Below are positions 519 to 32,965 of a stretch of DNA of 64,000 nucleotides, in pieces. Below the pieces are notes generated by a model that saw only the letters and a list, made by a program, of their open reading frames with translations, did no database searches and was not told the origin of the DNA. Source of the DNA: Chloroflexota bacterium (GTDB lineage Bacteria; Chloroflexota; UBA5177); the NCBI GenBank assembly GCA_036752825.1, contig DAIORV010000003.1, forward strand, positions 3,674 through 67,673, written 5' to 3'. Numbering within the stretch: position 1 is the stretch's first letter; each line of letters begins with the position of its first letter. Position numbers and translations under genes: made by a program.

Positions 519-1400
519 ATGAACGTGTCGATGGAAGAGCTGCCGTTCCTCGAGAAGCCGGTTCTCCCGCGTCTACGCCGGCCTGTTCTCGTGGCGGCCT
601 TCGCGGGCTGGAACGACGCCGCTCAGGCAGCGACGTTTGCCGTGGAGACGCTGCTTCGTCTGCTTGGGACTACCAAGCTGGCGGAGGTCGATCCCGAGGA
701 GTTCTACGACTTCACGGAGGCGCGTCCGATCATCACCCTGACGGAGCAAAAACGTTCCATCACGTGGCCGCAGAACCGGTTTTTCGCGCACCGCCTACCT
801 GCCGCCGAGCGGGATTTGGTCCTGTTTCTGGGCGTTGAACCCCAGCTCAGGTGGAGAACCTACTGCCGTATCTTCACCACACTGGCAGATGAGCTTGACG
901 TCTCGCAGCTCATCTCGCTCGGAGCGTTGCTCGCCGAAGTTCCGCATACCATCGAACCCAAACTGACCGGCTTTGCAGCGGGGACTGAGAACATACCAAA
1001 CCTCGAGATTTTGGGTGTGGAGATGTCGTCTTACGAGGGCCCGACCGGTGTCATAGGTGCGCTCCACGACGCCTGGCTGGCCACCGGGCGGCCGGCGGTG
1101 AGCTTGTGGGGTAACGTGCCTCACTACATATCGGCCACCCCCAACCCCGGTGTGTCCCTGGCGCTGCTGCAGCGGCTCGCGGTCCTGCTCGGAGTTGACC
1201 TTCCTCTCGAAGCGCTGCAGCTACGGGCCAGCGCGTTTCGAACGCAGATCGACGAGGCGCTGCAGGAGAATCCTGAGGCGCGGGAGTACGTGGAGCAGCT
1301 GGAAGCGGGATATGGAACCGAAGCGCCCCCGCCCGCGGGGCCGGAGCTGATCGACGAGCTCGAGCGGTATCTGCGAGGTCGGAGGCCGCCGGAAGGCTAG
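519..1400 (+). CDS. PAC2 (proteasome assembly chaperone-like) family protein
   Basis: LVAAFAGWNDAAQAA, DPEEFYDFTEARP, EPQLRWR, LGALLAEVPHT, YEGPTGVIG, LWGNVPHY. Confidence 0.9.
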   Translation: MNVSMEELPFLEKPVLPRLRRPVLVAAFAGWNDAAQAATFAVETLLRLLGTTKLAEVDPEEFYDFTEARPIITLTEQKRSITWPQNRFFAHRLPAAERDLVLFLGVEPQLRWRTYCRIFTTLADELDVSQLISLGALLAEVPHTIEPKLTGFAAGTENIPNLEILGVEMSSYEGPTGVIGALHDAWLATGRPAVSLWGNVPHYISATPNPGVSLALLQRLAVLLGVDLPLEALQLRASAFRTQIDEALQENPEAREYVEQLEAGYGTEAPPPAGPELIDELERYLRGRRPPEG

Positions 1401-2971
1401 GGCGACGTCGCGTTCAGGGTCCGTTGCTGGAGTGCCGTGACTAGCGGCACCAGGCTGTTTCGCAAGTGGTTCTGCCTGGCAAGATCGTGCTTAGTCCGCG
1501 ACGCAAGAGCGTCTGCGAGCACGATGCCGTCCGTTCTTCCCGGTGGGCTCCCGAGAAGTCTCTCCACAGTGGGCGCAATGTCGACGAGTCGAGCAGGATA
1601 GCTGGAGACGTAGCCCTGCCGAACGCCGGGACCGGCAATGATCAATGGAATGTGCTGCTCGTCCCAGCCGGGTCCGAGGTGGCCTCCCCACCAGTGGTAC
1701 CCGTTCGCAATGCGGTCGCCGGTCGTCACGTGCGGGGCATAGACCGCCAGGACGTCAGCCCCTGACGGGGAGGCGTCGGTATTCGCTAGGGACAGGTATG
1801 CACGGCGCATGTAGACCGTGAGCGCCTTGCTGGTATATGCAGCACGGTAGGTCCAAGAACCATGAGCGAAGACCTTGTAATAAACCGCGTCGATCTCTGG
1901 ACTGTCCAGCCGTGCGATGTTGCGCGCGACGGCTGCGGCACGACTTACGACCTGCACGCCCATGCTGGCGCCTGTGTCGGCCTCGAGATAGACCTTGCCG
2001 GCGTGTGCCAGCGCCATGGCTTCGTCCAGAGCGGTGAAGGAGAGCCGGTCACGGATGAAGGACATCCCGTGGTCGGCGGTAATCACGAAATCCGTCCGGC
2101 TGAGCAACCCCGCCTTGCGGTAATCGTCCATGATCCACCCGAGCTCGCGGTCGAAATGCTGCATCAGGACGCGCTGCACCTTTCCGGGACGCTTGCTGAA
2201 GTGACCGGTCACGTCGGTTTCCGGAAGGTTCATCATCACGGCTCGCGGGTAGTGCACTGTCTTGAAGGCCCAGAGCGCGTATCTGACGGTCCAGTCGTTC
2301 TCCTCCCCGACGTTCCACTGCTGGACCGCCGCGCCGAAGCTAGACGTTGGAGGCGGTATCGGTACGTCCCACCGGGGATTGTTGATGGCGCCGGGGGGAG
2401 GAAGGTGACCCGGGATCGCTTGAGCTACCCAGCGGCCGTGGTAGATGTTCGCGCACAGGATATAGTCAGCCGCCCCGGTTCCCATCACATCGGCCGCGTA
2501 ACACTTGTGTCCGCTAATGGCGACGACGCGGGCGGATGGATCCTGGCCTTTGAGGGACGACGCGATCGAAGAGACGTTGTGCTGGCGGAGGATTCGCTCC
2601 AGGTCTCCGTGCTGAACCTGCGCTATATCGGTGGGCCGGGTCATCTTTCCGGTGCTTGGATCTTTCCACCAAAAGCCTTCGATGCCGTGATGCTTTGGGA
2701 AGAGGCCGGTGCCAATCGTGGCGTGGGAGGGCGGGGTATTCGCGATCTCTTGCCCCACAAAGGCTCGCGAGAAACTCGTGCCCCGCCGCTCCAGGGACTT
2801 CAAATTGGGCATGGAGGCGAGGTTGAAGTAGTCGGGTCTGGAACCGTCAAGAACGATGAGTACCAGGTACCGGGGACCGGGCGCGGCGCGAGCATCCATT
2901 CGGGTGCCGGCTGGGAACACCTGCGATGCCAAGAAAAGGATCGCGGCGGCGGCAGCGAAGAGTTTTTGCAC
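1397..2971 (-). CDS. Exported alkaline phosphatase superfamily (nucleotide pyrophosphatase/phosphodiesterase-like) protein
   Basis: GTG start at 2971 overlaps the upstream TAG. Signal-peptide-like N-terminus VQKLFAAAAAILFLASQVFPA. Motifs LDG, NTPPSH (Thr nucleophile), ETDVTGH, TADHG, GGHLG. Confidence 0.85.
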   Translation of the reverse strand: MQKLFAAAAAILFLASQVFPAGTRMDARAAPGPRYLVLIVLDGSRPDYFNLASMPNLKSLERRGTSFSRAFVGQEIANTPPSHATIGTGLFPKHHGIEGFWWKDPSTGKMTRPTDIAQVQHGDLERILRQHNVSSIASSLKGQDPSARVVAISGHKCYAADVMGTGAADYILCANIYHGRWVAQAIPGHLPPPGAINNPRWDVPIPPPTSSFGAAVQQWNVGEENDWTVRYALWAFKTVHYPRAVMMNLPETDVTGHFSKRPGKVQRVLMQHFDRELGWIMDDYRKAGLLSRTDFVITADHGMSFIRDRLSFTALDEAMALAHAGKVYLEADTGASMGVQVVSRAAAVARNIARLDSPEIDAVYYKVFAHGSWTYRAAYTSKALTVYMRRAYLSLANTDASPSGADVLAVYAPHVTTGDRIANGYHWWGGHLGPGWDEQHIPLIIAGPGVRQGYVSSYPARLVDIAPTVERLLGSPPGRTDGIVLADALASRTKHDLARQNHLRNSLVPLVTALQQRTLNATSP

Positions 2972-4674
2972 TAGGCAGGGCGCTTCGCGGGATACAGCGC
3001 GTTGTGAGCCGCACCCAGAGTCGAGAAACACACCGGAGGTTTCAGGTTCGGCGAGTGCCCTTGCGAGGTCACTTTGTACACGGCAACGTCGTGGGTGGGG
3101 TAGCGCCAGTCGTGTGGACTGGCATCGATCGGAAATTGCCAGCCGAGGATCGAGGGCGTGTAGTGGACGCTGAGAGCAAGCGTGAAGGCTCGGTCGCTGG
3201 CCAGCGCGGATCGAAATTGCGCGACTTGCCGATCGGAAAAGCGCGGATGCTCCTCGAGGTCGTAGCTGTCGGTCAACAGATACGTCTCGGGACCCTGTAA
3301 GCGACGCGGATCGAATTGCGTAAAACACGGCTCAAAGGTGTGTGGCGGTCCGAAGTAGGGGAGGTTTATCAGGCCGTTGGGCAGCTGCTCGTACGCGACG
3401 GCCGTATTGACGGGGGCCCGTTGCGCCAGCCAGCTCGTGGCAACGTAGCGTGGATCCGGCTTCGCGAAGAGGCCGACGTACGCAAGGTCGTAGGTAAGGC
3501 TGTATAAGAGAGCTGCGAATGCGACGGCTATTGCGCCGAGGCGAATGGGACGGCTGGGCATGGCAAGCATGTCTGAAGCGAACCTTCCGGCGAGGACGGC
3601 CAGCGCGGGCAGCAGAGGCGCACTATATCGCATGAATTTCGCGGGTGAGATCGAAACAAGCACGAAATAGGCGACTATCCAGCAGAGAAGAACCACGTCC
3701 GCTTTTTCGCGCCGAATCCCAGCCCATATGGCTCCCGCGACCATCCAGATGGCGAGGGGAAAGCCCACCCCGTAGCCCAGGGGGTAGCGAATGACGTAGG
3801 CCCAGGCGGGGCCGTACGCGGACCAACGAGTCCCGTACTGCGCACTGCTGTCTACGGTCCGAATTCGGAGCGTGTGCTGCATGGCCGCGAGCCAGGCGTT
3901 GAAGTCGACGACGGAATAGATGTTGAAGATGAGATAGCCGAGTAGGGCCGATACGGCGGCGACTGCAAGGTAGAGAGCGGTTTTGCGCTGCGAGAGCGCC
4001 CACGCGGCCGCGATAGGCACGAGCAACAGAGCCATGTGATACTCAGAGCCGACTGCCACACCGCAAAGCCCGCCCGCGAGCGCGAACGACCGACGAGAAG
4101 GCCGATCCATGGCGTGAAGTGCCGCTAGCAGCGCCAAGGAGACAAGCAGGCCAGTCGTGCTATCCGGGGTGCCGAAGTGTCCCAGCTGGATGAGCAAACA
4201 GGATAGAGCGGCACAGCCGGCGGCTAGTAATGCCGAGGTTAGTCCGAAATATCGAAGGGCAGTCCGATACACGACATAAACGGTCAGGGTGGAGACGAGG
4301 GCCGAGAGAAGGCGCGCGGCTAGCACGGTGCGCACGAACGTCATATCCGCGTGTGCGCCGAACGCACTGCTTGCGAATAGCGAGAACAGCGGCATGGTGA
4401 GGAGGTGAAGACCGTAGGCCAGGTACGGGAAGACCATCCCCCAGTCAAAAAAGCACTGGCTACCGCCGACCGGGCACGGGGAGGCCGAGTGATAGGTGTC
4501 GAACCAGCGGAAGAGCCAGTACACCGTCCATTCGTCGGGGTGAGGACGGCTGGAGACCGTCGCATCCTGAAGGCCCCAGGCAATGCCGTAGAGGCGAAGG
4601 CCCAAAGCAAGCACCAGTACTGCAAGAAGCAGGGGGAGACGCCATCGCGCGAGGTCGCCCCGTGGAGCGATCAC
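2971..4674 (-). CDS. GT-C fold membrane glycosyltransferase (ArnT/PMT, family 39-like)
   Basis: Polytopic hydrophobic protein with an acidic HPDE motif in the first loop, plus ARLLSAL, HFGTPD and RYSAPLLP. Confidence 0.8.
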   Translation of the reverse strand: MIAPRGDLARWRLPLLLAVLVLALGLRLYGIAWGLQDATVSSRPHPDEWTVYWLFRWFDTYHSASPCPVGGSQCFFDWGMVFPYLAYGLHLLTMPLFSLFASSAFGAHADMTFVRTVLAARLLSALVSTLTVYVVYRTALRYFGLTSALLAAGCAALSCLLIQLGHFGTPDSTTGLLVSLALLAALHAMDRPSRRSFALAGGLCGVAVGSEYHMALLLVPIAAAWALSQRKTALYLAVAAVSALLGYLIFNIYSVVDFNAWLAAMQHTLRIRTVDSSAQYGTRWSAYGPAWAYVIRYPLGYGVGFPLAIWMVAGAIWAGIRREKADVVLLCWIVAYFVLVSISPAKFMRYSAPLLPALAVLAGRFASDMLAMPSRPIRLGAIAVAFAALLYSLTYDLAYVGLFAKPDPRYVATSWLAQRAPVNTAVAYEQLPNGLINLPYFGPPHTFEPCFTQFDPRRLQGPETYLLTDSYDLEEHPRFSDRQVAQFRSALASDRAFTLALSVHYTPSILGWQFPIDASPHDWRYPTHDVAVYKVTSQGHSPNLKPPVCFSTLGAAHNALYPAKRPA

Positions 4675-4680
4675 GTGTAT

Positions 4681-6219
4681 TTACAGGCCCCGGGAGAGTA
4701 CGGCGCGGCCCTCCGCCACAATCGTCCTGTCAAGAAGGTAGAGGCAGCCAAGATACACGACGGCGGCGAGGAGGAGGCACGCGATGAGCGTGGGCAGGTC
4801 CCCGAGATGAAGGAATCCGAGCATGGCCGCCTCGAGCGCGATGGCGGCTGCCGACATCGCAAAAGTCGAGAGGAGCGGAACTCTGGCCGCGCGCCAGACC
4901 TGTAATGGCGAAACGTCCAGGACCCAGTCGGCGAGATACAAAGCAGCCGGAAGCTCGATGATTTGCACGGGAATGTAAACGCTGGCGAGTCCGACGATCC
5001 CGTAATGGGCTCCAAACGCCATGGCGGGAATCATGACAGCGAGCTTTATCCCGTTATAGATCGGCACGATCCAGGGCTTTCCGATGGACTTGTAGGCCTC
5101 GAAGAATATTGAGAGCATGGTTCGGTTGCCTGCATACACGGCCAGCAACGACAGCACGATAAACGAGCCTCGGTACTGCGTCCATTTGTCCCCAAGGAGT
5201 GGAACGATGATAACGGGGGCGACGGAGGCTAGCAGAGCCGCCGCAGGGAACATCACGAGACCCAGTTGACGAATCGACTTAACGAGAGTGCGCCGAAGCG
5301 CCTCAATGTCGTCCTGGAGCCGGCTGAGCGCCGGGAATACCATACTGCTTGCGACCAACGTGAAGACACTGGCGGCGATAAAAGCCAGCTTCCAGGAGGT
5401 CGAGTAGAAGCCCATGTTGCTCGTGCTCTTGATGAAATGGGGACCGACGACGAGATCAATGTTCTGCGAGAGAAAGAGCACGGTTAGGCCGAGCCCCACC
5501 CACGCTCCGTAGCGGAAGAGCTGCCACGCGATCCGCGGAACGAACTCGAGTTTGGGCCGGTACGGGTAGACGGCCCAGAGGAGAATGGTGCCGGCGACGA
5601 CCGAGCCGAGCTCGCGTGCGACGAGTGCTCCGACGCCAAAGCCCCAGATAGCAAAAACCACGGCCAGGTCGCCGGCTACGATGACCTGCCCCAGAGGCGG
5701 GATAGACCGCGCCCTGAAGTCCATGTCTCGGAGCAGCAGATAGAAGTGCACTGAACCGGCCGAGGCGAAGATGTAGGCAATCGCGAGAATGCGCACCACG
5801 CCCTCTACTTCGGGCCGGTGGTAATAGAGCGCGGCAGGATGCGCGATCAGCTCGAGGACCAGTGTGACCACCACGGCGAAGAGCATGTTCAAGCTCCACG
5901 CGGTGTTCGCCACCTGCCGGCTGACCTGGCGCTCGAAGACCAGGGCCGGCCCGGTCCCGAAGTTCCTGAAGTTGTCCAGGAACTTGTAGGGCACACTGGA
6001 AATGTCAAATAGGCCCGCGGCACCGGGGCCCAGGAAGCGGCGGAGGCCTATGGTGAATATGGGGCCGAGTGCTTTAGGAGTGGCGAGCGCAAAGAGAACC
6101 CAGAACGCTCCTTCGCGTCCGGGCAATCTGTCGAGGATCCGTGCTGGGATCGCACGATATCCGGTCAGCTGGACCGGTTGCCCGACCATCTCGAGCGCTG
6201 GCTGTGGCTCTGCCGACAT
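4681..6219 (-). CDS. Oligosaccharide flippase (Wzx/MOP superfamily)
   Basis: About 12-14 hydrophobic segments, GFGVGALV, QNIDLVVG...MGFYSTSWKL, VFPALSRLQDD. RBS AAAGGA before the ATG. Confidence 0.88.
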   Translation of the reverse strand: MSAEPQPALEMVGQPVQLTGYRAIPARILDRLPGREGAFWVLFALATPKALGPIFTIGLRRFLGPGAAGLFDISSVPYKFLDNFRNFGTGPALVFERQVSRQVANTAWSLNMLFAVVVTLVLELIAHPAALYYHRPEVEGVVRILAIAYIFASAGSVHFYLLLRDMDFRARSIPPLGQVIVAGDLAVVFAIWGFGVGALVARELGSVVAGTILLWAVYPYRPKLEFVPRIAWQLFRYGAWVGLGLTVLFLSQNIDLVVGPHFIKSTSNMGFYSTSWKLAFIAASVFTLVASSMVFPALSRLQDDIEALRRTLVKSIRQLGLVMFPAAALLASVAPVIIVPLLGDKWTQYRGSFIVLSLLAVYAGNRTMLSIFFEAYKSIGKPWIVPIYNGIKLAVMIPAMAFGAHYGIVGLASVYIPVQIIELPAALYLADWVLDVSPLQVWRAARVPLLSTFAMSAAAIALEAAMLGFLHLGDLPTLIACLLLAAVVYLGCLYLLDRTIVAEGRAVLSRGL

Positions 6220-6282
6220 GGAGTCCTTTCCGCTTCCAACAATGATAGTAAAAGATGCTCAGGTCGAAGGCCGGGTCACGTA

Positions 6283-7089
6283 GTGGTTCAACGAAATGTA
6301 AGAGAGGCCGGTGCGGCGTCTTGGCGCGCAACGCACGGCATATCTTCGGGCGAGATGTTCGGCGTGCGCATCGATCTCTTTCGGCTTCCACAGGTGCTCG
6401 AGATGGTGCGGGAGGCCATCGGATCTGCGTCGCGAATTACGGTCTTCTACGTCAATATCTATTGCATGAACCTTTCGCGGCGACACCCCGATTTCCGCGA
6501 GACACTGAACCACGGTGACATGGTGTACTGCGATGGCACCGGCGTGCGCCTGGGCGCGAGGCTCCTGGGAATAGACATCCCGCAGAGAATGACCGGCGCA
6601 GACTGGATACACGATTTGTGCCGTCTCGCCGTCCGAGATGGTCTCTCGCTCTTCTTTCTCGGTTCTGCCGCTGGAGTTGCAGAAGAGGCGGCAAGCGCGC
6701 TTCGCGTCCGCTATCCGGGGATACGTGTCGTCGGCTGTGAGGCGGGGTTCGAGATCGGCACGGAGACCATCTCGACGATCAATTCAAGTGGCGCCGACAT
6801 CCTTCTGGTCGGAATGGGATCCCCACGTCAGGAGCGGTTCATCGCGACGAACAGGTCCGACATCAATGTGCCGGTAATGTGGGCGGTTGGAGCGTTATTC
6901 GAGTTCGTGTCGGGACGAATTCCACGCGGCCCTCACTGGATGACGGAGCACGGGCTGGAGTGGGTGTGCCGGCTGGCAACGGAGCCGGCCAAGCTGTGGA
7001 GGCGCTATCTAATTGGGAACCCTGCGTTCATGGCGAGCGTGCTAAGAGAGAGGCTGCGGCGATTCCTATCGCTCTCTAGTCCTTCATAG
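6283..7089 (+). CDS. WecB/TagA/CpsF family glycosyltransferase (start uncertain, GTG 6283 chosen)
   Basis: YVNIY, YCDGTGV, RMTGADW, LFFLGS, LLVGMGSPRQE, VGALFEFVSG, RGPHWM, GLEW-RL-EP-KLWRRY. Confidence 0.92.
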   Translation: MVQRNVREAGAASWRATHGISSGEMFGVRIDLFRLPQVLEMVREAIGSASRITVFYVNIYCMNLSRRHPDFRETLNHGDMVYCDGTGVRLGARLLGIDIPQRMTGADWIHDLCRLAVRDGLSLFFLGSAAGVAEEAASALRVRYPGIRVVGCEAGFEIGTETISTINSSGADILLVGMGSPRQERFIATNRSDINVPVMWAVGALFEFVSGRIPRGPHWMTEHGLEWVCRLATEPAKLWRRYLIGNPAFMASVLRERLRRFLSLSSPS

Positions 7090-8254
7090 CTTCTGCCAGG
7101 ATTGCGGCGACCTCGGGTCGAGTGAACTCCGCGGGCGGGAGATCTCCGGCACGAAGCATTGCTCGAACCTCGGTTCCACTAAGGTTCATGCGATGCTCCG
7201 GCCCATGCGGGCAGGTTTTCTCAGTCGCATGGTTGCCGCAGACCCGGCAATAGAATGCGTTCTCGAAGAACAAAGGCTGAATGCCAAGCTCGCCCGCGGC
7301 GAACTCGGAAAAGATGTGCTGTGCATCGTACGGACCGTAGTAGCCGCCGACTCCCGCGTGGTCGCGACCGACGATGAAGTGGGTACAGCCGTAGTTCTTA
7401 CGTATCAACGCGTGAAAGATTGCCTCACGCGGCCCACCATACCGCATCGCGGCCGGGTTGACGGCGAGCAACACGCGATCCGCGGGGTAGTAATCAGCGA
7501 GCAGGGCTTCGTACGACCGCATTCGCACATCGGCGGGAACGTCATCGGACTTGGTAGCGCCCACGAGCGGGTGCAAGAGCAGGCCATCGACGATCTCCAT
7601 CGCAGCCTTTTGCATGTACTCGTGCGCGCGGTGGACAGGATTGCGCGTCTGAAACCCGACGATCGTGCGCCATTTCCGCTCCGCAAATATTCGCCGGGTC
7701 TCGGCAGGCGGATGATAGTGCTTGGGAAAGGCAGGGGACGGTAGGGGTCCAAACACCCGCACTCGTCCGCCAACGGCGACTTCTCCCTCGGCGTAGAGTG
7801 CCGCGACTCCGGGGTGTGCCTCGTCGGTCGTACGATAGACCTTTTCGGCCTCTCGCTCTTTGTCTCGCTTGAATACTTCAGCTACTTCGAGGACGGCGAA
7901 CGCGCTGCCGTCGAGCGCCAGTGCGATCCTGTCGCCTGCACGCGTGGACTGGGCATTATCCGCTTCAAGGGAAAGCGCGATCGGGATCGTCCAGGGGATT
8001 CCGTTGGCAAGCCGCATCTCGTCCACGACGGAGTCATAGTCGGCACTTCCCATGAAGCCGGTAAGCGGGCTATAGCCACCGATGGCCAGCATTTCGACGT
8101 CGGACGCTTCTCGGGCGTTGAGATTTCGGACCTGCAAGGAGCGAGCTTCCTCCTCGATCTGGCCCGCTTCGCTCTTGGGAAGCTGCAAATTCACGAGTGC
8201 TCCCCCATGGGGTGAGGCGCCGAATTGTTCTCGCTCGATTACAGATGTAGACAC
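7076..8254 (-). CDS. sat: Sulfate adenylyltransferase (ATP sulfurylase), stand-alone type without APS-kinase domain
   Basis: SPHGGALV, GYSPLTGFM, FQTRNPVHRAHE, MRYGGPREAIFHA, NYGCTHFIVGRDHAG, SGTEVR, FTRPEV. Confidence 0.97.
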   Translation of the reverse strand: MSTSVIEREQFGASPHGGALVNLQLPKSEAGQIEEEARSLQVRNLNAREASDVEMLAIGGYSPLTGFMGSADYDSVVDEMRLANGIPWTIPIALSLEADNAQSTRAGDRIALALDGSAFAVLEVAEVFKRDKEREAEKVYRTTDEAHPGVAALYAEGEVAVGGRVRVFGPLPSPAFPKHYHPPAETRRIFAERKWRTIVGFQTRNPVHRAHEYMQKAAMEIVDGLLLHPLVGATKSDDVPADVRMRSYEALLADYYPADRVLLAVNPAAMRYGGPREAIFHALIRKNYGCTHFIVGRDHAGVGGYYGPYDAQHIFSEFAAGELGIQPLFFENAFYCRVCGNHATEKTCPHGPEHRMNLSGTEVRAMLRAGDLPPAEFTRPEVAAILAEAMKD

Positions 8255-8257
8255 GAT

Positions 8258-9889
8258 TTACAGATACCCCCATCCCTTCAACTTTTCTTTGATCTGATTC
8301 TCTTCGTCTTGAGTCAGAAACGACTCCGTCGACTGAGGTGTGAGCACCATATCCAGCTCTTCGACCTCGCGCTCGCTCTCGTTGAATATCTCCGTCAAAA
8401 CCCGGCCATCCATATCGACAGGCACGCCTAGCCCCATGGTGTGCAATATCGTCGGAGTCATGTCGATAAGGCATGCATCGGCGACAGTGGTACCTGCTGT
8501 TATCCCCGGTCCCCTCGCGAGCAAGATTCCCTTCTCATCATGCGACCCTGGAACCTGTCGGAGCTCGTCAAATGGAACATGTCCAACCACCGGGCCTTGC
8601 GCCAGAGGTCCTTCCTTGTACATCTCTTTGCACCAGACAATGATGTCGGGCGAGCGCTCTGTAAATTCGCCCTGAAAGAGCTCCTCGCGCTTGAAGGCGC
8701 GTTCCACGATCTTCTCCCCCGTATGTGGATCGCGGAGCTCCAGCACGTCGCGAATGATGCGGTTACGGAGAGCCTCGTAGTCGTCCGGAGCGACCGTGCC
8801 CAGCTGCTGGCGGCCGCGAACATTTATCACGATGCCGGCCAACGGCGGACACTTCATGGGGAAGTGGTACGCCTGAGTCTGACCAAAGTCAATCTCCTGA
8901 AGCGCTCGCCACATAGTCTTCAACCCACCCTGTGCTCCCTTCGGGAGGTTGCGACGCAGCATTGAGCGGAGCTTGGCCGGCATGACCTTCTGGTTCAGCG
9001 CATAGATTCTTTCGTTGAAGGACTTTGCCTGAGCCTTCGGAGCAAGCAGTCCTTGCTGCGCCAACCACACGTTGAGGTTCAGCTGGCGGGGAGGCGTAAT
9101 ATTGCCGCCGTGGTCCGAAATCACAAAAATCGTGTCGTCTGGACCGAGGCGCTCGAGGGTCTCTCCCAGCGCCTGGTCCATCTTTCGATAGAAGCGATTA
9201 ATGACGTCGCCCCAGCGTCCAGCCGCCTGCGGATCGTAGACCGGCGTGCGCTGGTCCACGAACCCCATGAAGAAGTGGTGAATCTCATCCGAGACCCTGT
9301 GAACCGCCATGAAAAAGTCGTACTGCTTTTCCATCAGACGGTTGATCAGGTTGCTCATTCGCTCCATTTGGTCGTCGAGCGCCTGTACCTGCTGTTCAGT
9401 AGTCAGCAGTCGGAAATCTCCCTGTTCATCCGGAGAGGCCTGGTCACCAAGCTGTTCCCGAAGCTCGGGAGGATAGAACGAGTCAGGTGTGTCTCCCGGC
9501 GTCGGAAAGCCCGAAACCATGAGGCCGTTGACTGGCCACGCTGGAAACGTCATCGGCACTCGAGCGGCGCATACCGTGCCTCCAAGCTTGCCGACGATAT
9601 CGAAAATCGTTTGCTCGGCGAAGTACCGGGAGTTGGCGATGCGACCTACGTATTCGTAGCTAAGGGCGTCGTAGTCCTGGAACATATAGACGCCGTGCTT
9701 TCCGGAATTCTTTCCGGTCATAAAGGTGACCCAGGCGGCTGCGCTTTGAAAGGGCACGGTTGAGATAAGCTCGCCGGAGGCTCCGTCCTTCATCAGAGAC
9801 TCGAAGTTAGGCATCTCCCCACGCTGGACAAGCGGCCGGATGAAGCGCCAGGTGGCTCCATCGAATCCAATGACGTAGACTCGCCTCAA
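8258..9889 (-). CDS. Cytoplasmic alkaline phosphatase superfamily protein (type I phosphodiesterase-like, Ser nucleophile)
   Basis: TTG start with AAAGGAG RBS. Motifs IGFDGATW, STVPFQSAAAWVTFMTG, SDEIHH, ISDHGG, GSHDEKG. No signal peptide. Confidence 0.88.
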   Translation of the reverse strand: MRRVYVIGFDGATWRFIRPLVQRGEMPNFESLMKDGASGELISTVPFQSAAAWVTFMTGKNSGKHGVYMFQDYDALSYEYVGRIANSRYFAEQTIFDIVGKLGGTVCAARVPMTFPAWPVNGLMVSGFPTPGDTPDSFYPPELREQLGDQASPDEQGDFRLLTTEQQVQALDDQMERMSNLINRLMEKQYDFFMAVHRVSDEIHHFFMGFVDQRTPVYDPQAAGRWGDVINRFYRKMDQALGETLERLGPDDTIFVISDHGGNITPPRQLNLNVWLAQQGLLAPKAQAKSFNERIYALNQKVMPAKLRSMLRRNLPKGAQGGLKTMWRALQEIDFGQTQAYHFPMKCPPLAGIVINVRGRQQLGTVAPDDYEALRNRIIRDVLELRDPHTGEKIVERAFKREELFQGEFTERSPDIIVWCKEMYKEGPLAQGPVVGHVPFDELRQVPGSHDEKGILLARGPGITAGTTVADACLIDMTPTILHTMGLGVPVDMDGRVLTEIFNESEREVEELDMVLTPQSTESFLTQDEENQIKEKLKGWGYL

Positions 9890-9920
9890 TCTGGTCTCCT
9901 TTCGCTACGCAGTGCCACGC

Positions 9921-11264
9921 TTAGCCGGCGACGACGACGCGGCCGTCCAGGTCTTCAGGTGCGTCGAGCTTCATGAGGCGACAGGCCGTTGGCAGGACGT
10001 CATGCACCGAGGCATGATCGACGTTGATTCGCTGCCCTCGTATGAACAGCGTTGCGTTGTCGTACTTGTGCATGCCCACCAGCTTACCCCGGCCGGTGAA
10101 CTGGTCCGATTCGAATGTGCCCTTGATGTCGTATCCGTCGAGCGGCATTACCAGAAGGTCCGGGGCGCGGTCTCTTTGCGGACCGTGATAGATATCGTCG
10201 GCGCGATATACCTCGGCTATCATGCGCTCCTCGCTCTCCGGATCGCGCAAGTCTTGAAGACGACCGGCGAGCTCATCCAGCAAGGCGGGCGCATCGGCGA
10301 GCGCCACCGAGCCGGCGATTTCTCTGCCCTCGAGGTTCAGGTACACCCGGCCCGGATCCAGACTGTAAGCGCGCGTGAGGGGTTCGAGCCCGCTCGGTCC
10401 CTTTTCCGAGCCTGGCTTGAAGTGGAGATACCCCTGCTCCTCCAGCCAGACGTTGAGATAAACCTCTTTTCTCAGCGTGGTGAAGCCGTGATCGGACAGG
10501 ATTATCAGTTGATCGTCCGCCGACAGCTTTGAGAGGATATTGCCGGCCAGAGCATCGATAAGCCGGTACGCGTCCAGAAACATCGGCCCATACTTCGGGT
10601 CTTTGTCCTCCATGTATTGCCACATGAAGTGGTGCAGGCGATCGGTCTCCATAAAGACCACGAAGAAGAGAGCCCATTCTTCTTTGTCCATGAGGTATGT
10701 AACGGCCTCGGCTCGCTTCTCCGCCGTGACCTTGAAGTCTTCGATGAAGTCCTCGAGGGACTGGCGAGCTACCCACGGATCGGTGTCGATCCGGTATCCA
10801 ATTGACTCGAGAGGAGCGAGAACGGACGTCGGATAGACGGCTTTTGACAGAACTGGAGCCAGAAAGTCGGAGATGACGACGCCGTTGATCCGTTGCGGAG
10901 GATAGCTGAGCGGCACGTTGATTGCGACGGCACGTCTCCCGGCGTCGCTGACCAGCTCCCACAGAGTTTTTGATCGAACGTGAGCCGATGTCATTACTTC
11001 GATGGAGTTCGTACCCGGTTTTCGGTCCACGAAGCCGTAGATGCCGTGTTTTGCGGGATTCTTCCCTGTATTGATCGACGTCCAAGCCACGGCTGACACG
11101 TCGGGCAGGGAGGAATTCATCTCCACTGCGGTTCCGCTCTCGAAGGCTCTTGCCAGATTCGGCATATCACCTGCATTCATCAGGCTCTGGAGCAGCGGAA
11201 GTGGCGAGCCGTCCAGTCCGAGAATGAAAAGGCGCTGCGGCCTGGACGAGCGAAATAAGCGCAT
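9921..11264 (-). CDS. Cytoplasmic alkaline phosphatase superfamily protein (type I phosphodiesterase-like, Ser nucleophile)
   Basis: ATG 11264 (or TTG 11267) after GAAGGA. Motifs LGLDG, SSLPDVSAVAWTSINTG, ETDRLHH, LSDHGF, GMHKYD. No signal peptide. Confidence 0.88.
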   Translation of the reverse strand: MRLFRSSRPQRLFILGLDGSPLPLLQSLMNAGDMPNLARAFESGTAVEMNSSLPDVSAVAWTSINTGKNPAKHGIYGFVDRKPGTNSIEVMTSAHVRSKTLWELVSDAGRRAVAINVPLSYPPQRINGVVISDFLAPVLSKAVYPTSVLAPLESIGYRIDTDPWVARQSLEDFIEDFKVTAEKRAEAVTYLMDKEEWALFFVVFMETDRLHHFMWQYMEDKDPKYGPMFLDAYRLIDALAGNILSKLSADDQLIILSDHGFTTLRKEVYLNVWLEEQGYLHFKPGSEKGPSGLEPLTRAYSLDPGRVYLNLEGREIAGSVALADAPALLDELAGRLQDLRDPESEERMIAEVYRADDIYHGPQRDRAPDLLVMPLDGYDIKGTFESDQFTGRGKLVGMHKYDNATLFIRGQRINVDHASVHDVLPTACRLMKLDAPEDLDGRVVVAG

Positions 11265-11357
11265 CAACCGTCCTTCAGGTTCCCTTCTCTCCGCGACCTC
11301 GGAACCCGATGGCACGCGCACCTGGACCCTGGCGATTTCCTCTGGCGGGACCCCTCG

Positions 11358-11387
11358 ATTATGGTGACTTGCCTCAGCCGGGCACAA
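11358..11387 (-). promoter_or_regulatory. Candidate sigma70-type promoter for the AlkP-AlkP-sat operon
   Basis: TTGTGC-18 nt-CATAAT on the minus strand, about 90 nt upstream of the ATG. Confidence 0.5.
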
Positions 11388-11428
11388 GCAGATGAAGTGG
11401 TTCAGGCGGTGATTTAGATCCGCAGACG

Positions 11429-11462
11429 GGAGCCGTTGGCATCTTGCGATGCCGGCGGCTCC
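11429..11462. other. Strong hairpin between divergent genes
   Basis: GGAGCCGTTGGCATC-TTGC-GATGCCGGCGGCTCC, 15 bp including two G-U pairs, followed by TTCACTT on the plus strand. Confidence 0.6.
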
Positions 11463-11566
11463 TTCACTTCAGGAAACGTTTCAGTCACAGCCTGACCCGG
11501 TTCCGCGTGAAACTGGAGAGATCGCTGCCTAATATGACGAGTCAGCGGATCGCGACGACTCGTTGA

Positions 11567-13117
<1,551 letters not shown>

Positions 13118-16498: not shown

Positions 16499-18079
16499 AT
16501 GGTCACGCGACAACGAGACCAGAAGATTACATACACGACGATGAGCGTCGAGCAGGCCGAGAGCTTCAACCGGGATTATGACCGCGCTCTGGATCAGGTG
16601 CGGTCTCAGCTGGGCCGCCGATATCCCCTTTACATAAATAACCAAGCCGAGTCCTCGACGAATCCTGTCTTTGAAGACCGAAGCCCAAATGACACTCGTG
16701 TGGTCCTCGGAAATTTCGAGGAGGGCGGGAAGCAGCATGCCGATGCTGCAATTGAAGCCGCTCGGGGCGCCTTTCCCGCGTGGTCGTCGTATCCCTGGCA
16801 GAAGAGGATCGAGATTCTACGACGCGGAGCCGAGATCTTCCGACAGCGTAAATATGAGATTGCTGCGTGGCTTTCCTTGGAAGCGGGGAAGCCGCGCCTG
16901 GAATCGATGGGCGAGGTAGAGGAGGCTGCGGACCTCATTTTCGGGTACTGCGGGTACATGGAGGACGCCAACGGCTTCGTAGTCGAGATGGAACGCCTGT
17001 CGGCTCAGGAGGCGAATCACAGCGTTCTACGGCCATATGGCGTCTGGATCGTCATTGCTCCGTTCAATTTTCCTGTCGCACTCACGACGGGAATGATTGC
17101 GGGCGCCCTGGTGGCCGGGAACACGGTTGTCTTTAAGCCCTCGCACGAGACTCCCCTGGTCGGGACAAAAGTGTTCGAGTGCCTCCGGGATGGCGGTCTT
17201 CCGGCCGGCGCGCTGAACTTCGTTACGGGCCATGGAAACCAGATCGGTGAACAGCTCTCCAGCCATCCGAGCGTAGATGGCATCGTGTTCACGGGATCGG
17301 CTCAGGTGGGCACGCGACTGTTTAGAGAATTCAGCAAAGAGCGACCACGACCGTGCATTGCCGAAATGGGGGGCAAGAACCCGACTATCGTCACCGATTC
17401 GGCCGATCTTGACAAGGCCGTGGAGGGAACGGCAAGGGCCGCCTTCGGCTACAGCGGGCAGAAGTGCAGCGCGACCTCTCGCGTCTACGTGCACGACTCG
17501 GTTGCCGGGGAGTTTACGAGGCGATTGGTTGAACGCACTCAGCAGCTTGTGGTGGGACCGGCGGAGCGAGACGATGTCTTCATGGGTCCTGTCATCAACC
17601 GCACGGCGTACGAGCGTTTTCAGCAGGCGTGCGAGAGATCTCACAACGATGGGGAGATCCTCAGCGGAGGAAACGTGGTGACAGATGGGCCCCTGAAGCA
17701 CGGGTACTTTTGCGCTCCCACCATCGTGTCGCTGCCGAAAGACCATCAGTACTTCTACGAGGAGTTGTTTGTTCCGTTGGTGGCCGTGGCGAGAGTCTCG
17801 TCACTCGACGAGGCCCTGACGCTCGCCAATGATTCGAAATACGGATTGACGGCCGGAATATTCACGGAGGACGAACGAGAGCAGCAAGAATTCCTGAAGC
17901 GCATGGAGGCCGGAGTAATCTACGTCAATCGCCGCGGTGGCTCGACGACCGGGGCATGGCCACGAGTACAGTCCTTCGGCGGCTGGAAAATGAGCGGCTC
18001 TACGGGTAAGAACGCCCTCGGACCGTACTACGTCCAGCAGTTCATGCACGAGCAGTCGCAAACCGTCGTCACGGACTAG
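16499..18079 (+). CDS. pruA: Aldehyde dehydrogenase, P5C/glutamate-semialdehyde dehydrogenase-like
   Basis: APFNFP, FKPS, FTGS, AEMGGKN, FGYSGQKCSATSR, EELFVP, YGLTAG, FGGWKMSG. RBS GGAGG. Confidence 0.8.
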   Translation: MVTRQRDQKITYTTMSVEQAESFNRDYDRALDQVRSQLGRRYPLYINNQAESSTNPVFEDRSPNDTRVVLGNFEEGGKQHADAAIEAARGAFPAWSSYPWQKRIEILRRGAEIFRQRKYEIAAWLSLEAGKPRLESMGEVEEAADLIFGYCGYMEDANGFVVEMERLSAQEANHSVLRPYGVWIVIAPFNFPVALTTGMIAGALVAGNTVVFKPSHETPLVGTKVFECLRDGGLPAGALNFVTGHGNQIGEQLSSHPSVDGIVFTGSAQVGTRLFREFSKERPRPCIAEMGGKNPTIVTDSADLDKAVEGTARAAFGYSGQKCSATSRVYVHDSVAGEFTRRLVERTQQLVVGPAERDDVFMGPVINRTAYERFQQACERSHNDGEILSGGNVVTDGPLKHGYFCAPTIVSLPKDHQYFYEELFVPLVAVARVSSLDEALTLANDSKYGLTAGIFTEDEREQQEFLKRMEAGVIYVNRRGGSTTGAWPRVQSFGGWKMSGSTGKNALGPYYVQQFMHEQSQTVVTD

Positions 18080-18471
18080 ACGACCTCGATCGACTCCTCG
18101 GTGACGTCGTCGCCGTCCATGCGATAGGCGTGCATGATCGGCTGCTCCGGGTCGGCCAACGATAGGATCAAGTACAGCGTTTCGGGGTAGAACGCTAGCC
18201 GGCGGTCTTCTGGAGATGGATAAGCCCGAGTGTGCGTGTGTGAATGGTAGATGGCCGCCAGATCCCAGTCGTTGTCCTCGATCTCCAGCATTGCATGCAG
18301 CTGCTGCTTCGGATCCATCTTGTAGTGGACGGGGCTCGAGTCGGAGTTTTCGATAGGGTAGAACTTCACGACCTTGCCGTTCTCCGCAGCCAGTAGGCCG
18401 CATCCCTCGTTGGGGAATTGTTCACGCGCCTGCTCGATCATGGCTTCCACGAAATGGCGCGCGATCACCAC
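18076..18471 (-). CDS. mec: JAMM/Mov34 (MPN+) peptidase, CysO-Cys hydrolase-like
   Basis: EGCG, YHSHTHTRAYPSPED JAMM motif. Start overlaps the cysM stop. Confidence 0.88.
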   Translation of the reverse strand: MVIARHFVEAMIEQAREQFPNEGCGLLAAENGKVVKFYPIENSDSSPVHYKMDPKQQLHAMLEIEDNDWDLAAIYHSHTHTRAYPSPEDRRLAFYPETLYLILSLADPEQPIMHAYRMDGDDVTEESIEVV

Positions 18472-19436
18472 AAGAATGCGCCTTCCAGATCTTCAGAAAG
18501 CTCCGAAAGATCAGCCGTCCAGAGATTGCCGCTCAAGTACTTCCAACCGGCGTCGGGAAGGAGAGCGACGACCGTGCCCCCTTTCATACCCGCGGCATAT
18601 TTGAGGGCCGAGTGGACGATGGCCCCGGAAGAAACGCCCGCGAAGATACCTTCTTCGCAGGCCAAACGTCGCATCATCTCGATGGCGGGCTCGCTTGGCA
18701 CCAGAATCTTTGCGTCGAGAACCGTGGGATCGAAGATTGGTGGAACAAATCCTTCCTCAAGACTGCGAAGACCCTGTACCAAGTCGCCCGGCAGCGGTTC
18801 GGCTGCCACGATCTTGACCCCCGGTCGTTCCTCTTTCAAGCGTCGACCGACCCCCGTTAGAGTGCCCCCCGTGCCCAAGCCCGCCACGAAGACATCTACG
18901 TCCGGGACATCCCTGAGTATTTCCGGCCCTGTCGTCTCGTAATGTGCGCGTGGATTTGCGTCGTTTCCGTACTGGTTCAGGACCCAGTAACGGTGCTCTT
19001 TGTCGAGCTCTTTTGCCATCTCAATGGAGCCGTTGGTACCTCGCTCAGCCGGCGAATCGATAATCTCCGCACCCAGGATCTCCAAGAGTTTCCTTCGCTC
19101 CGGCGTGACGTTCGATGGCATGACGGTAACTACCCGGTATCCTTTGACCCGACTGACCATGGCGACCGCGATGCCGGTGTTGCCACTCGTCGGCTCCAGC
19201 AGAATGTAGTCAGGTGATTCCGCACGGTCCTCGAATTCCTCGATCAGATACTTGGCTACCCGGTCCTTTACGCTGCCGCTCGGGTTCATGCCTTCGAGCT
19301 TCGCGAGCAGCCGAACGTGCGGATATGGGTTGAGCCTGGACAGCTCGACGACGGGAGTATTGCCGATTGCCTCGACAATGCTCGACGCCACGCCGGAAGA
19401 AACGCGAGGCAAGCCCGCATTCGAGGTGGACGTCAC
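18465..19436 (-). CDS. cysM: PLP-dependent cysteine synthase, sulfur-carrier-dependent type
   Basis: IGNTP, KLEGMNPSGSVKDR, EPTSGNTG, GLGTGGT, EEGIFAGVSSG, PDAGWKYLS. Confidence 0.92.
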   Translation of the reverse strand: MTSTSNAGLPRVSSGVASSIVEAIGNTPVVELSRLNPYPHVRLLAKLEGMNPSGSVKDRVAKYLIEEFEDRAESPDYILLEPTSGNTGIAVAMVSRVKGYRVVTVMPSNVTPERRKLLEILGAEIIDSPAERGTNGSIEMAKELDKEHRYWVLNQYGNDANPRAHYETTGPEILRDVPDVDVFVAGLGTGGTLTGVGRRLKEERPGVKIVAAEPLPGDLVQGLRSLEEGFVPPIFDPTVLDAKILVPSEPAIEMMRRLACEEGIFAGVSSGAIVHSALKYAAGMKGGTVVALLPDAGWKYLSGNLWTADLSELSEDLEGAFLW

Positions 19437-19442
19437 TTCGTA

Positions 19443-19712
19443 CTAACCGCCGGCCATCGCGGGCAGGATGATGACGGTATCACCGTCCGCCACGACGGTA
19501 TCGAGTTTTTGAAGATATTGGATGTCTTGGTCGTTGACGTACACATTCACGTATCGATGCAGCTGGTCCTCATCGAAGAGCTGGCTGCCTAGCTCCGGGT
19601 AATGTTTGGCTGCATCGCGCAGAATCTCACCGACGGTGGCTCCCGAGGCCACAATGCTCTTGGCTCCTCCGGTGTGTCCTCTCAGGACGGGCGGAATGCG
19701 GACAGTACTCAT
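19443..19712 (-). CDS. cysO: MoaD/ThiS-family sulfur carrier (CysO-like)
   Basis: MSTVRIPPVLR, VNVYVNDQDI, C-terminal PAMAGG. RBS GAGGAG. Confidence 0.9.
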   Translation of the reverse strand: MSTVRIPPVLRGHTGGAKSIVASGATVGEILRDAAKHYPELGSQLFDEDQLHRYVNVYVNDQDIQYLQKLDTVVADGDTVIILPAMAGG

Positions 19713-20177: not shown

Positions 20178-21047
20178 TCAGGAGATCTGGCGCAAGGCCA
20201 TGAGGCAACCAACCCCGAGAAGTCCAGCGGCGGGGGCGAACAGTTTGAAGAGCAGCAGTCGCGCCGGTCTCTCGGTCGTGTTGCGGGCGACGATTGCAGC
20301 GACTCCAGCTACGACAAGACTTGCAATCAGAACCGTGGCCGCTGAAACGGAATGAGCAGCCACAACCAGAGCAGTGCCGGCGAGAGCGCTAAGCGCGTAC
20401 AGAGTGAAGATGGTTGGGACGAGTCGCCGTTCTCCGAGAACCACGGCAAGGTTGCGGACTCCCATCTCGCGGTCCGTCTCGAGGTCCGGCGCAGCGTTTG
20501 CAAGATGGGCGGCCGCAATGATTGGAGCACCGGCTGCGTAGACGAGTAGAAAGCTGAGATTCAGCCGAGAGTTGATGAGCCATATCCAGGTCAGCAGACC
20601 CATGAAGCCCGCTAGATAGCCGGCGACGCTAAATGGTCCCCTGCTAAGCCAGAGGTCGTAAGCCCATCCACCTGAGGTTGCGAGCAGAAGGACGATCATC
20701 GACGGCCATCCGAAGGTGAGCGCAAAGAGCGCCGAAACCAGTGCCGCGGAAACAGTCAAGACAAGAGCCGATCGCTCTGTCGCCTGGCCGCAGGCGATGG
20801 GTTTGTCGCGCTGGAAAATCCGGTCAATATCCTTGTCGACGTAATCGTTGAGGGCGCCTACCGAGGCCTGGCAGAAGAGCACGGCGGCTACGGCGCGGAG
20901 AAGAAACGAACCTCCGGGGTATCCCCCATGAGCTACGAGGACCAGTGCCGCGGACGTGAGAACCACGATCGACACCGGAAACGGATGAACGAGTCGAGCG
21001 ATGGCCCAGGCACGAGACAGGGGCGTCACGGCAGCCGCCCCACCCAC
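20178..21047 (-). CDS. UbiA-family prenyltransferase
   Basis: Asp-rich motifs NDYVDKDID (followed by DKPI) and NAAPDLETD, multi-pass hydrophobic. Confidence 0.88.
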   Translation of the reverse strand: MGGAAAVTPLSRAWAIARLVHPFPVSIVVLTSAALVLVAHGGYPGGSFLLRAVAAVLFCQASVGALNDYVDKDIDRIFQRDKPIACGQATERSALVLTVSAALVSALFALTFGWPSMIVLLLATSGGWAYDLWLSRGPFSVAGYLAGFMGLLTWIWLINSRLNLSFLLVYAAGAPIIAAAHLANAAPDLETDREMGVRNLAVVLGERRLVPTIFTLYALSALAGTALVVAAHSVSAATVLIASLVVAGVAAIVARNTTERPARLLLFKLFAPAAGLLGVGCLMALRQIS

Positions 21048-30861: not shown

Positions 30862-30871
30862 GTGCCGGGCC

Positions 30872-32938: not shown

Positions 32939-32965
32939 CGAAGCGGATGGATGGGCAACGACACC

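Follow-up and report, generated by a model that had tools for sequence, protein, structure and literature searches.

A 64-kb stretch of the genome of an uncultured Chloroflexota bacterium (the window; positions below are counted within it, with the strand given as plus or minus) contains a conserved envelope-glycan locus (1397-11264) whose seven genes form three transcription units, co-transcription being judged by gene spacing. Two of the genes encode members of the alkaline phosphatase (AlkP) superfamily, AlkP-A and AlkP-B, and share a unit with sat, the gene for ATP sulfurylase (Sat). We propose, with a probability of roughly 45%, that these two proteins are non-classical sulfotransferases acting on lipid-linked sugars before the latter are flipped across the membrane. 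This reading is favoured because enzymes that form adenosine 5'-phosphosulfate (APS) or 3'-phosphoadenosine 5'-phosphosulfate (PAPS), together with sulfate transporters, are constant companions of clades A and D of the family; because its other companions build and export polyprenol-linked glycans; because the family forms tandem arrays of paralogs in the manner of tailoring enzymes; because no other sulfotransferase candidate lies nearby; and because a sister branch of the AlkP superfamily, represented by Agl30 and Agl31, sulfates lipid-linked glycans. The idea that AlkP proteins sulfate a lipid-linked glycan was put forward in a first-pass annotation of the same DNA; it survives a survey of gene neighbourhoods and has found its precedent in Agl30/Agl31, whereas the accompanying proposal that sulfation proceeds without PAPS is not supported across the family.

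PF01663 is the only Pfam family matched by either protein, at scores of 156.7 bits (E 1.5e-45) for AlkP-A and 123.6 bits (E 1.8e-35) for AlkP-B against a cut-off of 23, and the two are paralogs with 26% identity. AlkP-A (9921-11264, minus; 447 aa) is of the COG3379 type and belongs to clade A, and AlkP-B (8258-9889, minus; 543 aa) to clade B. The metal ligands are invariant in both (D18, D208, H212, D258, H259 and H399 in AlkP-A, where S57 is likewise invariant; D10, D201, H205, D259, H260 and H450 in AlkP-B), and the nucleophile motifs read P-D-V-S-A-V-A-W, with S57 as the serine, and P-F-Q-S-A-A-A-W, respectively. S57 of AlkP-A aligns with the catalytic Thr of the phosphonoacetate hydrolase PhnA, opposite the T-to-A mutant chain 3t02. 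The motif differs by clade (S-[SA]-V-A-W in A, [ST]-A-A-A-W in B and T-V-P-A-W in D), the family having S/T-x-x-A-W instead of the T-F-P-N-H of nucleotide pyrophosphatases/phosphodiesterases (NPPs). A sequence search of the PDB gave weak N-terminal PhnA matches only, and the fold is placed by structure prediction. The AlphaFold2 models reach a pLDDT of 94.9 for AlkP-A and 91.1 for AlkP-B, and the closest PDB folds found by Foldseek are Xanthomonas (Xac) NPP, PhnA and ENPP1/3/5/6/7 (TM 0.45-0.68, 11-17% identity; E about 1e-17 at TM 0.57-0.68); the top 50 matches consist of NPPs, PhnA and one alkaline phosphatase (SPAP), with no sulfatase among them. Neither protein matches the sulfatase family PF00884 at E≤0.01 or carries the C/S-x-P-x-R motif, and neither has a sulfotransferase domain recognizable by Pfam or NCBIfam. 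No hydrophobic segment, hence neither signal peptide nor transmembrane helix, is present in either, and because of this and the position of the first metal-binding Asp, 10-18 residues from the N-terminus, both are predicted to be cytoplasmic. Hydropathy, family alignments and the PhnA alignment all agree with the first-pass description of proteins that lack signal peptides and keep the metal ligands and a Ser nucleophile, and on sequence and models alike AlkP-A and AlkP-B are NPP-fold two-metal enzymes with an intact metal site and Ser nucleophile.

Beyond the residues shared with hydrolases of this fold, the family has invariant positions of its own, namely W61, F78, Y233, D237, N271, W273, R314 (in a G-R-E motif) and D369, of which Phe78, in our reading of the sequence, probably takes the place of the Asn that contacts the phosphoryl group in NPPs. 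Three additional Arg residues, R81, R209 and R306, are common to clades A and D. With R314 they make up the invariant Arg set of these clades, which surrounds an intact metal site and would suit a substrate of strong negative charge. R209 follows a metal-binding Asp, putatively at the Lys328 position of Escherichia coli alkaline phosphatase. AlkP-B is without these three Arg residues and has D201-E202, with no Arg beside the metal-binding Asp.

The third gene of the unit, sat (7076-8254, minus), has a GTG start 3 nt past the AlkP-B stop, and its product matches PF01747 (E 9e-98) and PF14306 (PUA_2, E 3e-54). It scores 559.5 bits against NF003166 (cut-off 387), and the model for the bifunctional enzyme stays below its own cut-off. 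The motifs QTRNPVHRAH (HRAH) and GRDHAG are present in the translation, and Sat is accordingly a canonical monofunctional ATP sulfurylase without an APS-kinase domain. The AlkP-A reading frame is open back to position 11387, and its ATG at 11264 is preceded by GAAGGA as ribosome-binding site; AlkP-B begins with TTG (9889) behind AAGGAG, 31 nt after the AlkP-A stop. The 31-nt and 3-nt gaps are as given in the first-pass annotation. Their size suggests that the three genes are co-transcribed and that sat is translationally coupled to AlkP-B; the single promoter that the first-pass annotation assigns to them is likewise a reading of this spacing. The 329 nt between AlkP-A and a divergent glycerol kinase gene (11265-11593) are presumed, from their position alone, to be the promoter region of the unit. 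A scan for sigma-70-like sites, of little value for Chloroflexota, gave none upstream on the minus strand, promoter and terminator sites were no more numerous than in shuffled sequence, and an Rfam scan of 6100-11700 gave no riboswitch or leader, with only two sub-threshold chance matches.

By tblastn, no APS kinase is detected in the window at E≤1e-3. Pfam scans covered the seven locus genes, the neighbouring PAC2 gene and 30 other large open reading frames (ORFs), all but a few of the large ORFs and none of the small ones, and domains of APS kinase, PAPS reductase or sulfotransferase did not appear. Within that coverage, the absence of APS kinase, APS/PAPS reductase and classical PAPS sulfotransferase from the window, as first reported, is borne out. 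A further sulfur-related set lies on the minus strand at 18079-19712, comprising a JAB/Mec-like protease (18079-18471), a PALP/CysM-like enzyme (18468-19406) and a ThiS-like sulfur carrier (19446-19712), which to our reading resembles the CysO-CysM-Mec cysteine pathway. Its counterpart in a related locus (L002) adds a rhodanese-ThiF activating enzyme, which was not found in the window. The set suggests that the organism also needs reduced sulfur and that Sat may serve two pathways.

An argument for a role in sulfate chemistry comes from the wider family. One genome per GTDB species was scanned with the AlkP-A alignment, which yielded 80 loci, and companion genes were counted by tblastn with seed proteins. 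The loci span at least seven phyla, including Chloroflexota (several classes), Planctomycetota (Brocadiaceae), Latescibacterota, Gemmatimonadota, Nitrospirota, Thermodesulfobacteriota and Actinomycetota. APS kinase occurs in 39 of the 80 and lies directly upstream of AlkP-A, on the same strand, in 34; Sat occurs in 26, and one or the other in 42, whereas chance alone would place a gene of one or two copies that close, within 10 kb, in well below 1% of cases. A third paralog clade with a Thr nucleophile, AlkP-D, is present in 32 loci, and the recurring order of the module is Sat, AlkP-D, APS kinase, AlkP-A; its carriers include loci from Herpetosiphonaceae (L080), Roseiflexaceae (L059) and Ktedonobacterales (L034). 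The hosts of the APS-kinase loci are several classes of Chloroflexota, Syntrophobacterales/Thermodesulfobacteriota and unclassified bacteria. CysDN replaces Sat in two loci; in a Nitrospirota locus CysD/CysN, a non-homologous GTP-driven sulfurylase, stands directly upstream of AlkP-A. A sodium:sulfate symporter or TauE-family exporter flanks six loci that carry sulfate-activation genes. In four Chloroflexota species Sat and AlkP-D form a single frame with no stop between the halves (L017, 6635-9244; L021, 6419-9160; L059, 4363-7485; L080, 231-2954), and a Sat-APS kinase fusion is found in L052 (6035-8317). Two long family members considered as APS kinase-AlkP fusions (P0384, 717 aa; P0362, 1104 aa) were rejected, as they hold only PF01663 repeats or an extension. 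The survey, a check named in the first-pass annotation, is thus strongly positive, linking the clade across phyla to APS kinase, Sat, CysDN and transporters, and by gene fusion.

No classical sulfotransferase was detected next to these genes. Its 5'-phosphosulfate-binding motif (P-K-x-G-T-T), sought in 3,034 ORFs of 84 loci, was matched once, and this match is taken to be spurious because it lies inside an ORF overlapping the AlkP-D gene of L055. Of the 184 Pfam families recorded in 115 ORFs that flank the sulfate-activation loci, none occurs more than four times, and the 25 shown include no sulfotransferase. Overall, classical sulfotransferases were not detected in about 1.2 Mb of flanks, the annotated part of which also showed neither cysH nor a gene for sulfite reductase. 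The sulfate-activation and AlkP genes are the only constant partners in these loci. Sulfate activation or transport genes are found in 46 of the 80 loci and seed-detectable glycan genes in 26; 14 have both and 22 neither.

A distinct conserved AlkP-A block is seen in Brocadiaceae and other Planctomycetota (L054, L056-L058, L062, L066, L070, L078). It consists of a radical-SAM CofH/MqnC-like gene, an old yellow enzyme (OYE)-type flavin oxidoreductase, AlkP-A, a metallo-beta-lactamase-fold protein, an isochorismatase, three small genes and, mostly, a phosphoglucomutase/phosphomannomutase (PGM/PMM). No sulfate genes lie within reach of this block, which looks like lineage-specific synteny and was counted neither for nor against.

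The second association of the family is with glycan assembly. In Anaerolineae, AlkP-A sits between a short-chain dehydrogenase/reductase (SDR) sugar epimerase/dehydratase and a 935-aa GT-C glycosyltransferase (TMEM260/PMT_2) with a WecA-like GT4 enzyme, which is a second, independent association of AlkP-A with GT-C besides that of the window. AlkP-D/AlkP-A pairs without Sat or APS kinase occur in L004, where the neighbour is a priming enzyme of the Bac_transf type, in L071, where Wzx and a GT2 synthase enclose the pair and Wzy_C is close by, and in L083, where a sulfatase-like gene follows; membrane-anchored sulfatase-domain proteins come after AlkP-A in several loci. In Latescibacterota and Gemmatimonadota a UDP-GlcNAc 2-epimerase gene lies directly downstream of AlkP-A. 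Tandem expansions occur in clade B. On a 340-kb contig (L088, 593-10662), six PF01663 paralogs of 553-570 aa surround one Wzx gene, four of them in tandem with the queried gene, and glycoside-hydrolase-like genes follow this cluster. Other distant AlkP-B relatives lie in a set with Wzy_C, GT4, sulfatase and Bac_transf, and in one with GT4, deacetylase, heparinase-II/III-like and AsnB genes. The tandem paralogs of clade B fit tailoring enzymes rather than a housekeeping hydrolase. Haloarchaeal replicons are also rich in the family (70 plasmid records), with a Haloferax member inside a cluster of GT2, GT4, deacetylase and Wzx genes, and a Halopiger cluster that holds sulfatases, two AlkP-family genes, GT4s, a PAPS-reductase-family gene and a PiT transporter. 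The neighbours (Wzx, Wzy, GT-C, WecA-like and priming transferases) therefore tie the AlkP clade to polyprenol-linked glycan assembly in bacteria and haloarchaea.

In the window the same association is formed by the remaining four genes of the locus. The second unit is a single plus-strand gene for a glycosyltransferase of the WecG/TagA/CpsF family (GT26; PF03808, E 1.1e-56; TIGR00696), which ends at 7089 and starts at either GTG 6298 or ATG 6355; it runs towards sat, the 3' ends of the two genes overlapping by 14 nt, and away from wzx, from which it is divergent. The third, on the minus strand, begins with wzx (4681-6219), which encodes a MOP flippase of 512 aa (PF13440, E 9e-52; PF01943; NCBIfam MOP flippase family) with about nine or more hydrophobic segments by hydropathy. 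It continues 6 nt later with a GT-C enzyme of 567 aa (2971-4674; PMT_2/ArnT-like; PF13231, E 7.7e-15, with a weak ArnT match), a multi-pass membrane protein with seven hydrophobic segments. The unit ends with AlkP-C (1397-2971; PF01663, E 2e-27), whose probable GTG start at 2971 overlaps the GT-C stop codon and which, because of its N-terminal hydrophobic signal or anchor segment, is predicted to be extracytoplasmic, secreted or anchored. The flippase, the WecG/TagA enzyme and the outer-face transferase (PF13231) mark the locus as one of the Wzx pathway; no Wzy gene is seen among its seven genes. All the genes named in the first-pass annotation are present where it placed them, but the glycosyltransferase, flippase and GT-C genes do not follow sat in a single run, since WecG/TagA is on the plus strand and the genes fall into three units, and the boundary drawn at 2971 left out the seventh gene, AlkP-C.

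Other parts of the window also contain envelope genes, and it holds five PF01663 genes altogether. A second envelope-glycan cluster extends from 23513 to 36260 and comprises a signal-anchored PF01663 protein 32% identical to AlkP-C (23513-25246), a GT9 enzyme (27517-28728), a second WecG/TagA-like glycosyltransferase (28469-29470), a UDP-sugar dehydrogenase (29467-30861), a WecA/MraY-like GT4 priming enzyme (30953-32002), a PAP2 phosphatase (31916-32938), an SDR, a methyltransferase and a 544-aa protein without Pfam match (34626-36260). This cluster may provide the priming enzyme of the sat-linked locus. A phosphatidylinositol-mannoside-like set occupies 56942-63564, with a GT4 enzyme (56942-58126), two HtrB/lipid-A-type acyltransferases (58203-60361), a myo-inositol-1-phosphate synthase (60067-61251) and the fifth PF01663 protein (646 aa, 61624-63564). 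A UbiA-family prenyltransferase gene (20349-21005, minus) is paired with a PAP2 phosphatase in two related loci (L001, 137-1624; L002, 1-1488), a pair that may resemble the decaprenyl-phosphoribose pathway feeding GT-C arabinosyltransferases in Actinobacteria.

The identity of the sulfuryl donor can be approached through the relatives of the window locus. The best homologs come from uncultured Chloroflexota, where JGI labels them 'predicted AlkP superfamily phosphohydrolase/phosphomutase', and the arrangement AlkP-A, AlkP-B, sat, wecG (opposite strand), wzx, GT-C, sometimes AlkP-C, and then PAC2 recurs at about 70% amino-acid identity. It is kept in L001, L002, L003, L006 and L009, one of them a 2.35-Mb contig (the locus is on CAVTRL010000001.1 of GCA_963737125.1, a contig of that length), and an AlkP-C ortholog stands in the same place in L002 and L006 and is absent from L001. 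No APS kinase lies within 10 kb of any of these five loci. Across the family, on the other hand, most orthologs stand immediately behind an APS kinase, which opposes the earlier proposal of sulfation without PAPS as a family-wide rule. None of the residues invariant across 14 aligned AlkP-A relatives is changed in AlkP-A of the window; seven of these relatives are only 46-50% identical, and at least two, P0117 and P0119, do not share the gene arrangement of the window. The window protein therefore probably has the same donor as they do, PAPS by the family pattern, and an unlinked cysC is predicted in its genome. Direct use of APS by the window proteins is possible but less likely. We regard as quite unlikely the stronger proposition that COG3379-type NPP-fold proteins are a second, so far overlooked class of carbohydrate sulfotransferases, widespread in bacteria and haloarchaea, which, in the window clade with its sat but no APS kinase in the operon, take the sulfuryl group directly from APS without PAPS.

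Our working scheme is as follows. Sat would convert ATP and sulfate into APS, and AlkP-A and AlkP-B would take a sulfuryl group from activated sulfate, which would be PAPS in the majority of lineages, with APS kinase encoded in the same operon, and in the window clade either APS or PAPS supplied by an unlinked kinase. The two enzymes would place this group on a polyprenol-linked sugar or oligosaccharide at the cytoplasmic face of the membrane, on an acceptor that the WecG/TagA-type enzyme may help to build. Wzx would then flip the sulfated intermediate, and GT-C would hand it to the final acceptor outside the membrane, where AlkP-C may process it further. That sulfate is the group transferred, and likewise the donor, the acceptor and the route, through a covalent sulfo-Ser or directly, we infer. 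Transfer of AMP, the other group suggested in the first-pass annotation, is likewise conjectural.

Several observations weigh against sulfotransferase activity. We found no biochemical or genetic datum for any member of PF01663/COG3379, and the fold, at 11-17% identity, is shared with hydrolases (NPP, PhnA). Resolving a sulfo-Ser intermediate is difficult, hence the formylglycine of sulfatases. The archaeal precedents Agl30 and Agl31 belong to the sulfatase branch (PF00884), are classed by InterPro as arylsulfatases and have formylglycine sulfatases (5G2U, 6HHM) as their best structures, whereas AlkP-A and AlkP-B are of the NPP/PhnA branch. APS kinase is missing from the cluster of the window's own clade. 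The flanks of the sulfate-activation loci are heterogeneous housekeeping genes with no conserved acceptor pathway, and 22 of the 80 loci are without sulfate or glycan genes, most of these being short contigs or part of the Brocadiaceae synteny block. Algal Sat fusions are to pyrophosphatase, and because of this the Sat-AlkP-D fusions would fit a hydrolase of by-products equally well.

These points lead to the best of the competing explanations, which we consider rather unlikely, that the AlkP proteins are accessory hydrolases of sulfate activation and the true sulfotransferases are encoded elsewhere. One of them (AlkP-D in other loci; AlkP-B or AlkP-A here) would remove pyrophosphate (PPi) and so pull the unfavourable Sat reaction, and the other would remove 3'-phosphoadenosine 5'-phosphate (PAP), the function of CysQ, or excess APS/PAPS. 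The closest structures do hydrolyse phosphoanhydride or phosphoester bonds and bind nucleotides (NPP with AMP, ENPP1/3), and the pairing of Sat with AlkP-D and of APS kinase with AlkP-A, together with the four Sat-AlkP-D fusions, resembles the algal sulfurylase-pyrophosphatase fusions. A division of labour of this kind would also suit the varied housekeeping contexts of the sulfate-activation loci, which have no conserved acceptor genes; R209 would fit a terminal phosphate monoester or PPi if it does correspond to Lys328; and a Natrinema homolog adjoins an inorganic diphosphatase gene. By contrast, there is no obvious reason for a scavenger of PPi or PAP to be encoded, as AlkP-D/AlkP-A pairs or a lone AlkP-A, in or beside glycan gene sets that have neither Sat nor APS kinase, and the four to six clade-B paralogs around a flippase gene would be atypical for such an enzyme. 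No classical sulfotransferase was detected in the 1.2 Mb of flanks, although PAPS-forming genes usually cluster with their consumers, and a PAP phosphatase would find no substrate made locally, as no APS kinase was detected in the window.

A second alternative, in our judgement very unlikely, is that the AlkP proteins add a phosphorus-containing group to the glycan or its precursor, for example a phospho-alcohol or sugar-phosphate from a nucleotide-activated donor, or that they hydrolyse a nucleotide-sugar or polyprenyl-diphosphate, with sat nearby for another reason such as assimilation. PF01663 chemistry is the cleavage of phosphodiesters and phosphoanhydrides via a phospho- or nucleotidyl-Ser/Thr, and structure descriptions have ENPP3 binding UDP-GlcNAc and ENPP6/7 phosphocholine. 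Such a role would suit AlkP-B, which is without the Arg set of clades A and D and has relatives in polysaccharide clusters with no Sat in their 9-kb flanks, and the ThiS/CysM/JAB-type set 7-8 kb away indicates that the organism may need Sat for assimilation. Yet AlkP-B is the very gene to which sat, at a distance of 3 nt, appears to be translationally coupled. Clades A and D, moreover, are tied to APS kinase, which is unneeded for assimilation of the APS-reductase type, to two non-homologous sulfurylases and to sulfate transporters, and the annotated flanks showed no cysH or sulfite reductase. Adjacency without functional meaning, with an assimilatory sat and unrelated phosphodiesterase genes held together by synteny, could account for the window clade, whose relatives at about 70% identity may have inherited their gene order, but is effectively excluded by the survey, in which the link recurs in distant lineages (40-49% identity), in other gene orders, with a non-homologous sulfurylase, in gene fusions and in 42 of 80 loci against an expectation well below 1%.

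The proposed sulfotransferase function would matter well beyond this locus. Bacterial glycan sulfation is now credited only to classical PAPS sulfotransferases, and the family considered here is large, with about 3,600 clusters at 50% identity at E≤1e-30 and about 16,000 at E≤1e-3, and carries only generic names in the sources ('alkaline phosphatase family protein', 'phosphodiesterase', 'nucleotide pyrophosphatase'). If AlkP-type sulfation is real, the family would provide candidate enzymes for the sulfated envelope or matrix glycans of Chloroflexota, anammox Planctomycetota, Latescibacterota, Gemmatimonadota and haloarchaea, would extend a 2025 archaeal discovery to another branch of the superfamily and to bacteria, and would offer a new scaffold for enzymatic sulfation. 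Should the proteins instead be PPi or PAP hydrolases, they would still constitute a new accessory module of the sulfate-activation pathway. Our literature searches, on the function of COG3379 or 'AlkP superfamily phosphohydrolase' and on sulfotransferase with nucleotide pyrophosphatase and APS kinase, found nothing on the family, and a 2024 review of polysaccharide sulfotransferases covers classical PAPS-dependent enzymes and PAPS-independent aryl sulfotransferases but leaves the alkaline phosphatase superfamily unmentioned.

Among characterized systems, the NPPs (Xanthomonas NPP, ENPP1-7) and PhnA share with AlkP-A and AlkP-B the fold, the six metal ligands and the position of the nucleophile; they differ in that AlkP-A and AlkP-B have Ser rather than Thr and S-A-x-A-W rather than T-F-P-N-H, are predicted to be cytoplasmic rather than secreted, and occur in another genomic context. 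LtaS, EptA and OpgB (MdoB) are AlkP-superfamily enzymes that work through a covalent Ser/Thr intermediate and pass the group to an acceptor instead of water. They combine an N-terminal membrane domain with an extracytoplasmic PF00884 domain and use lipid donors, whereas AlkP-A and AlkP-B are soluble, cytoplasmic by prediction and of the NPP type. The structural analogy with LtaS, EptA and MdoB drawn in the first-pass annotation is therefore poor, and a membrane transferase of the LtaS/EptA type is ruled out for AlkP-A and AlkP-B, which have no membrane domain.

PAPS-forming genes usually cluster with their consumers, as in nodPQ/nodH and raxPQ/raxST. In the capsule locus of Vibrio sp. KMM 8419, too, cysDNC is clustered with sulfotransferase genes (PMC11641403). 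The window locus resembles these classical systems in having donor-synthesis genes beside tailoring genes and genes for glycan assembly and export, and differs in that its tailoring candidates are AlkP proteins without a sulfotransferase domain or PAPS-binding motifs.

Closer in the step that is catalysed is Agl7 of Haloferax volcanii (HVO_2046), which is genetically required for sulfation of dolichol-phosphate-hexose on the cytoplasmic side (Kaminski et al., 2013; PMC3892788), and its authors suggest that flipping and transfer may depend on this sulfation. AlkP-A and AlkP-B are proposed to catalyse the corresponding step; Agl7 itself is archaeal and acts in N-glycosylation. Membership of Agl7 in PF01663/COG3379 was not confirmed, as a homolog search seeded from Haloferax mediterranei had no Agl7-named protein among its best 120, and two Haloferax homologs lie near glycan genes that do not form a recognizable agl5-agl15 cluster.

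The nearest functional parallel is the pair Agl30 (VNG1056C) and Agl31 (VNG1057C) of Halobacterium salinarum, AlkP-superfamily proteins that each sulfate one sugar of a lipid-linked N-glycan (Zaretsky et al., 2025; PMC11980604). The evidence consists of deletions and of introducing the activity into Haloferax; the paper leaves the donor undefined, and Agl30 is membrane-bound and Agl31 cytosolic (PMC11980604). Like AlkP-A and AlkP-B, they are encoded in a glycan cluster and lack the classical sulfotransferase fold, and, as is proposed for AlkP-A and AlkP-B, they work as a pair, of which at least one member is soluble and cytoplasmic, and act before flipping on a lipid-linked oligosaccharide; unlike them, AlkP-A and AlkP-B have the P-x-x-S-A-x-A-W motif, are bacterial and have a genomic tie to Sat and APS kinase. 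The system is best filed with the very recently recognized AlkP-superfamily glycan sulfotransferases, from which it is set apart by a different structural branch, its occurrence in bacteria and a distinctive four-gene module, and the NPP-fold family is a strong candidate for experiment.

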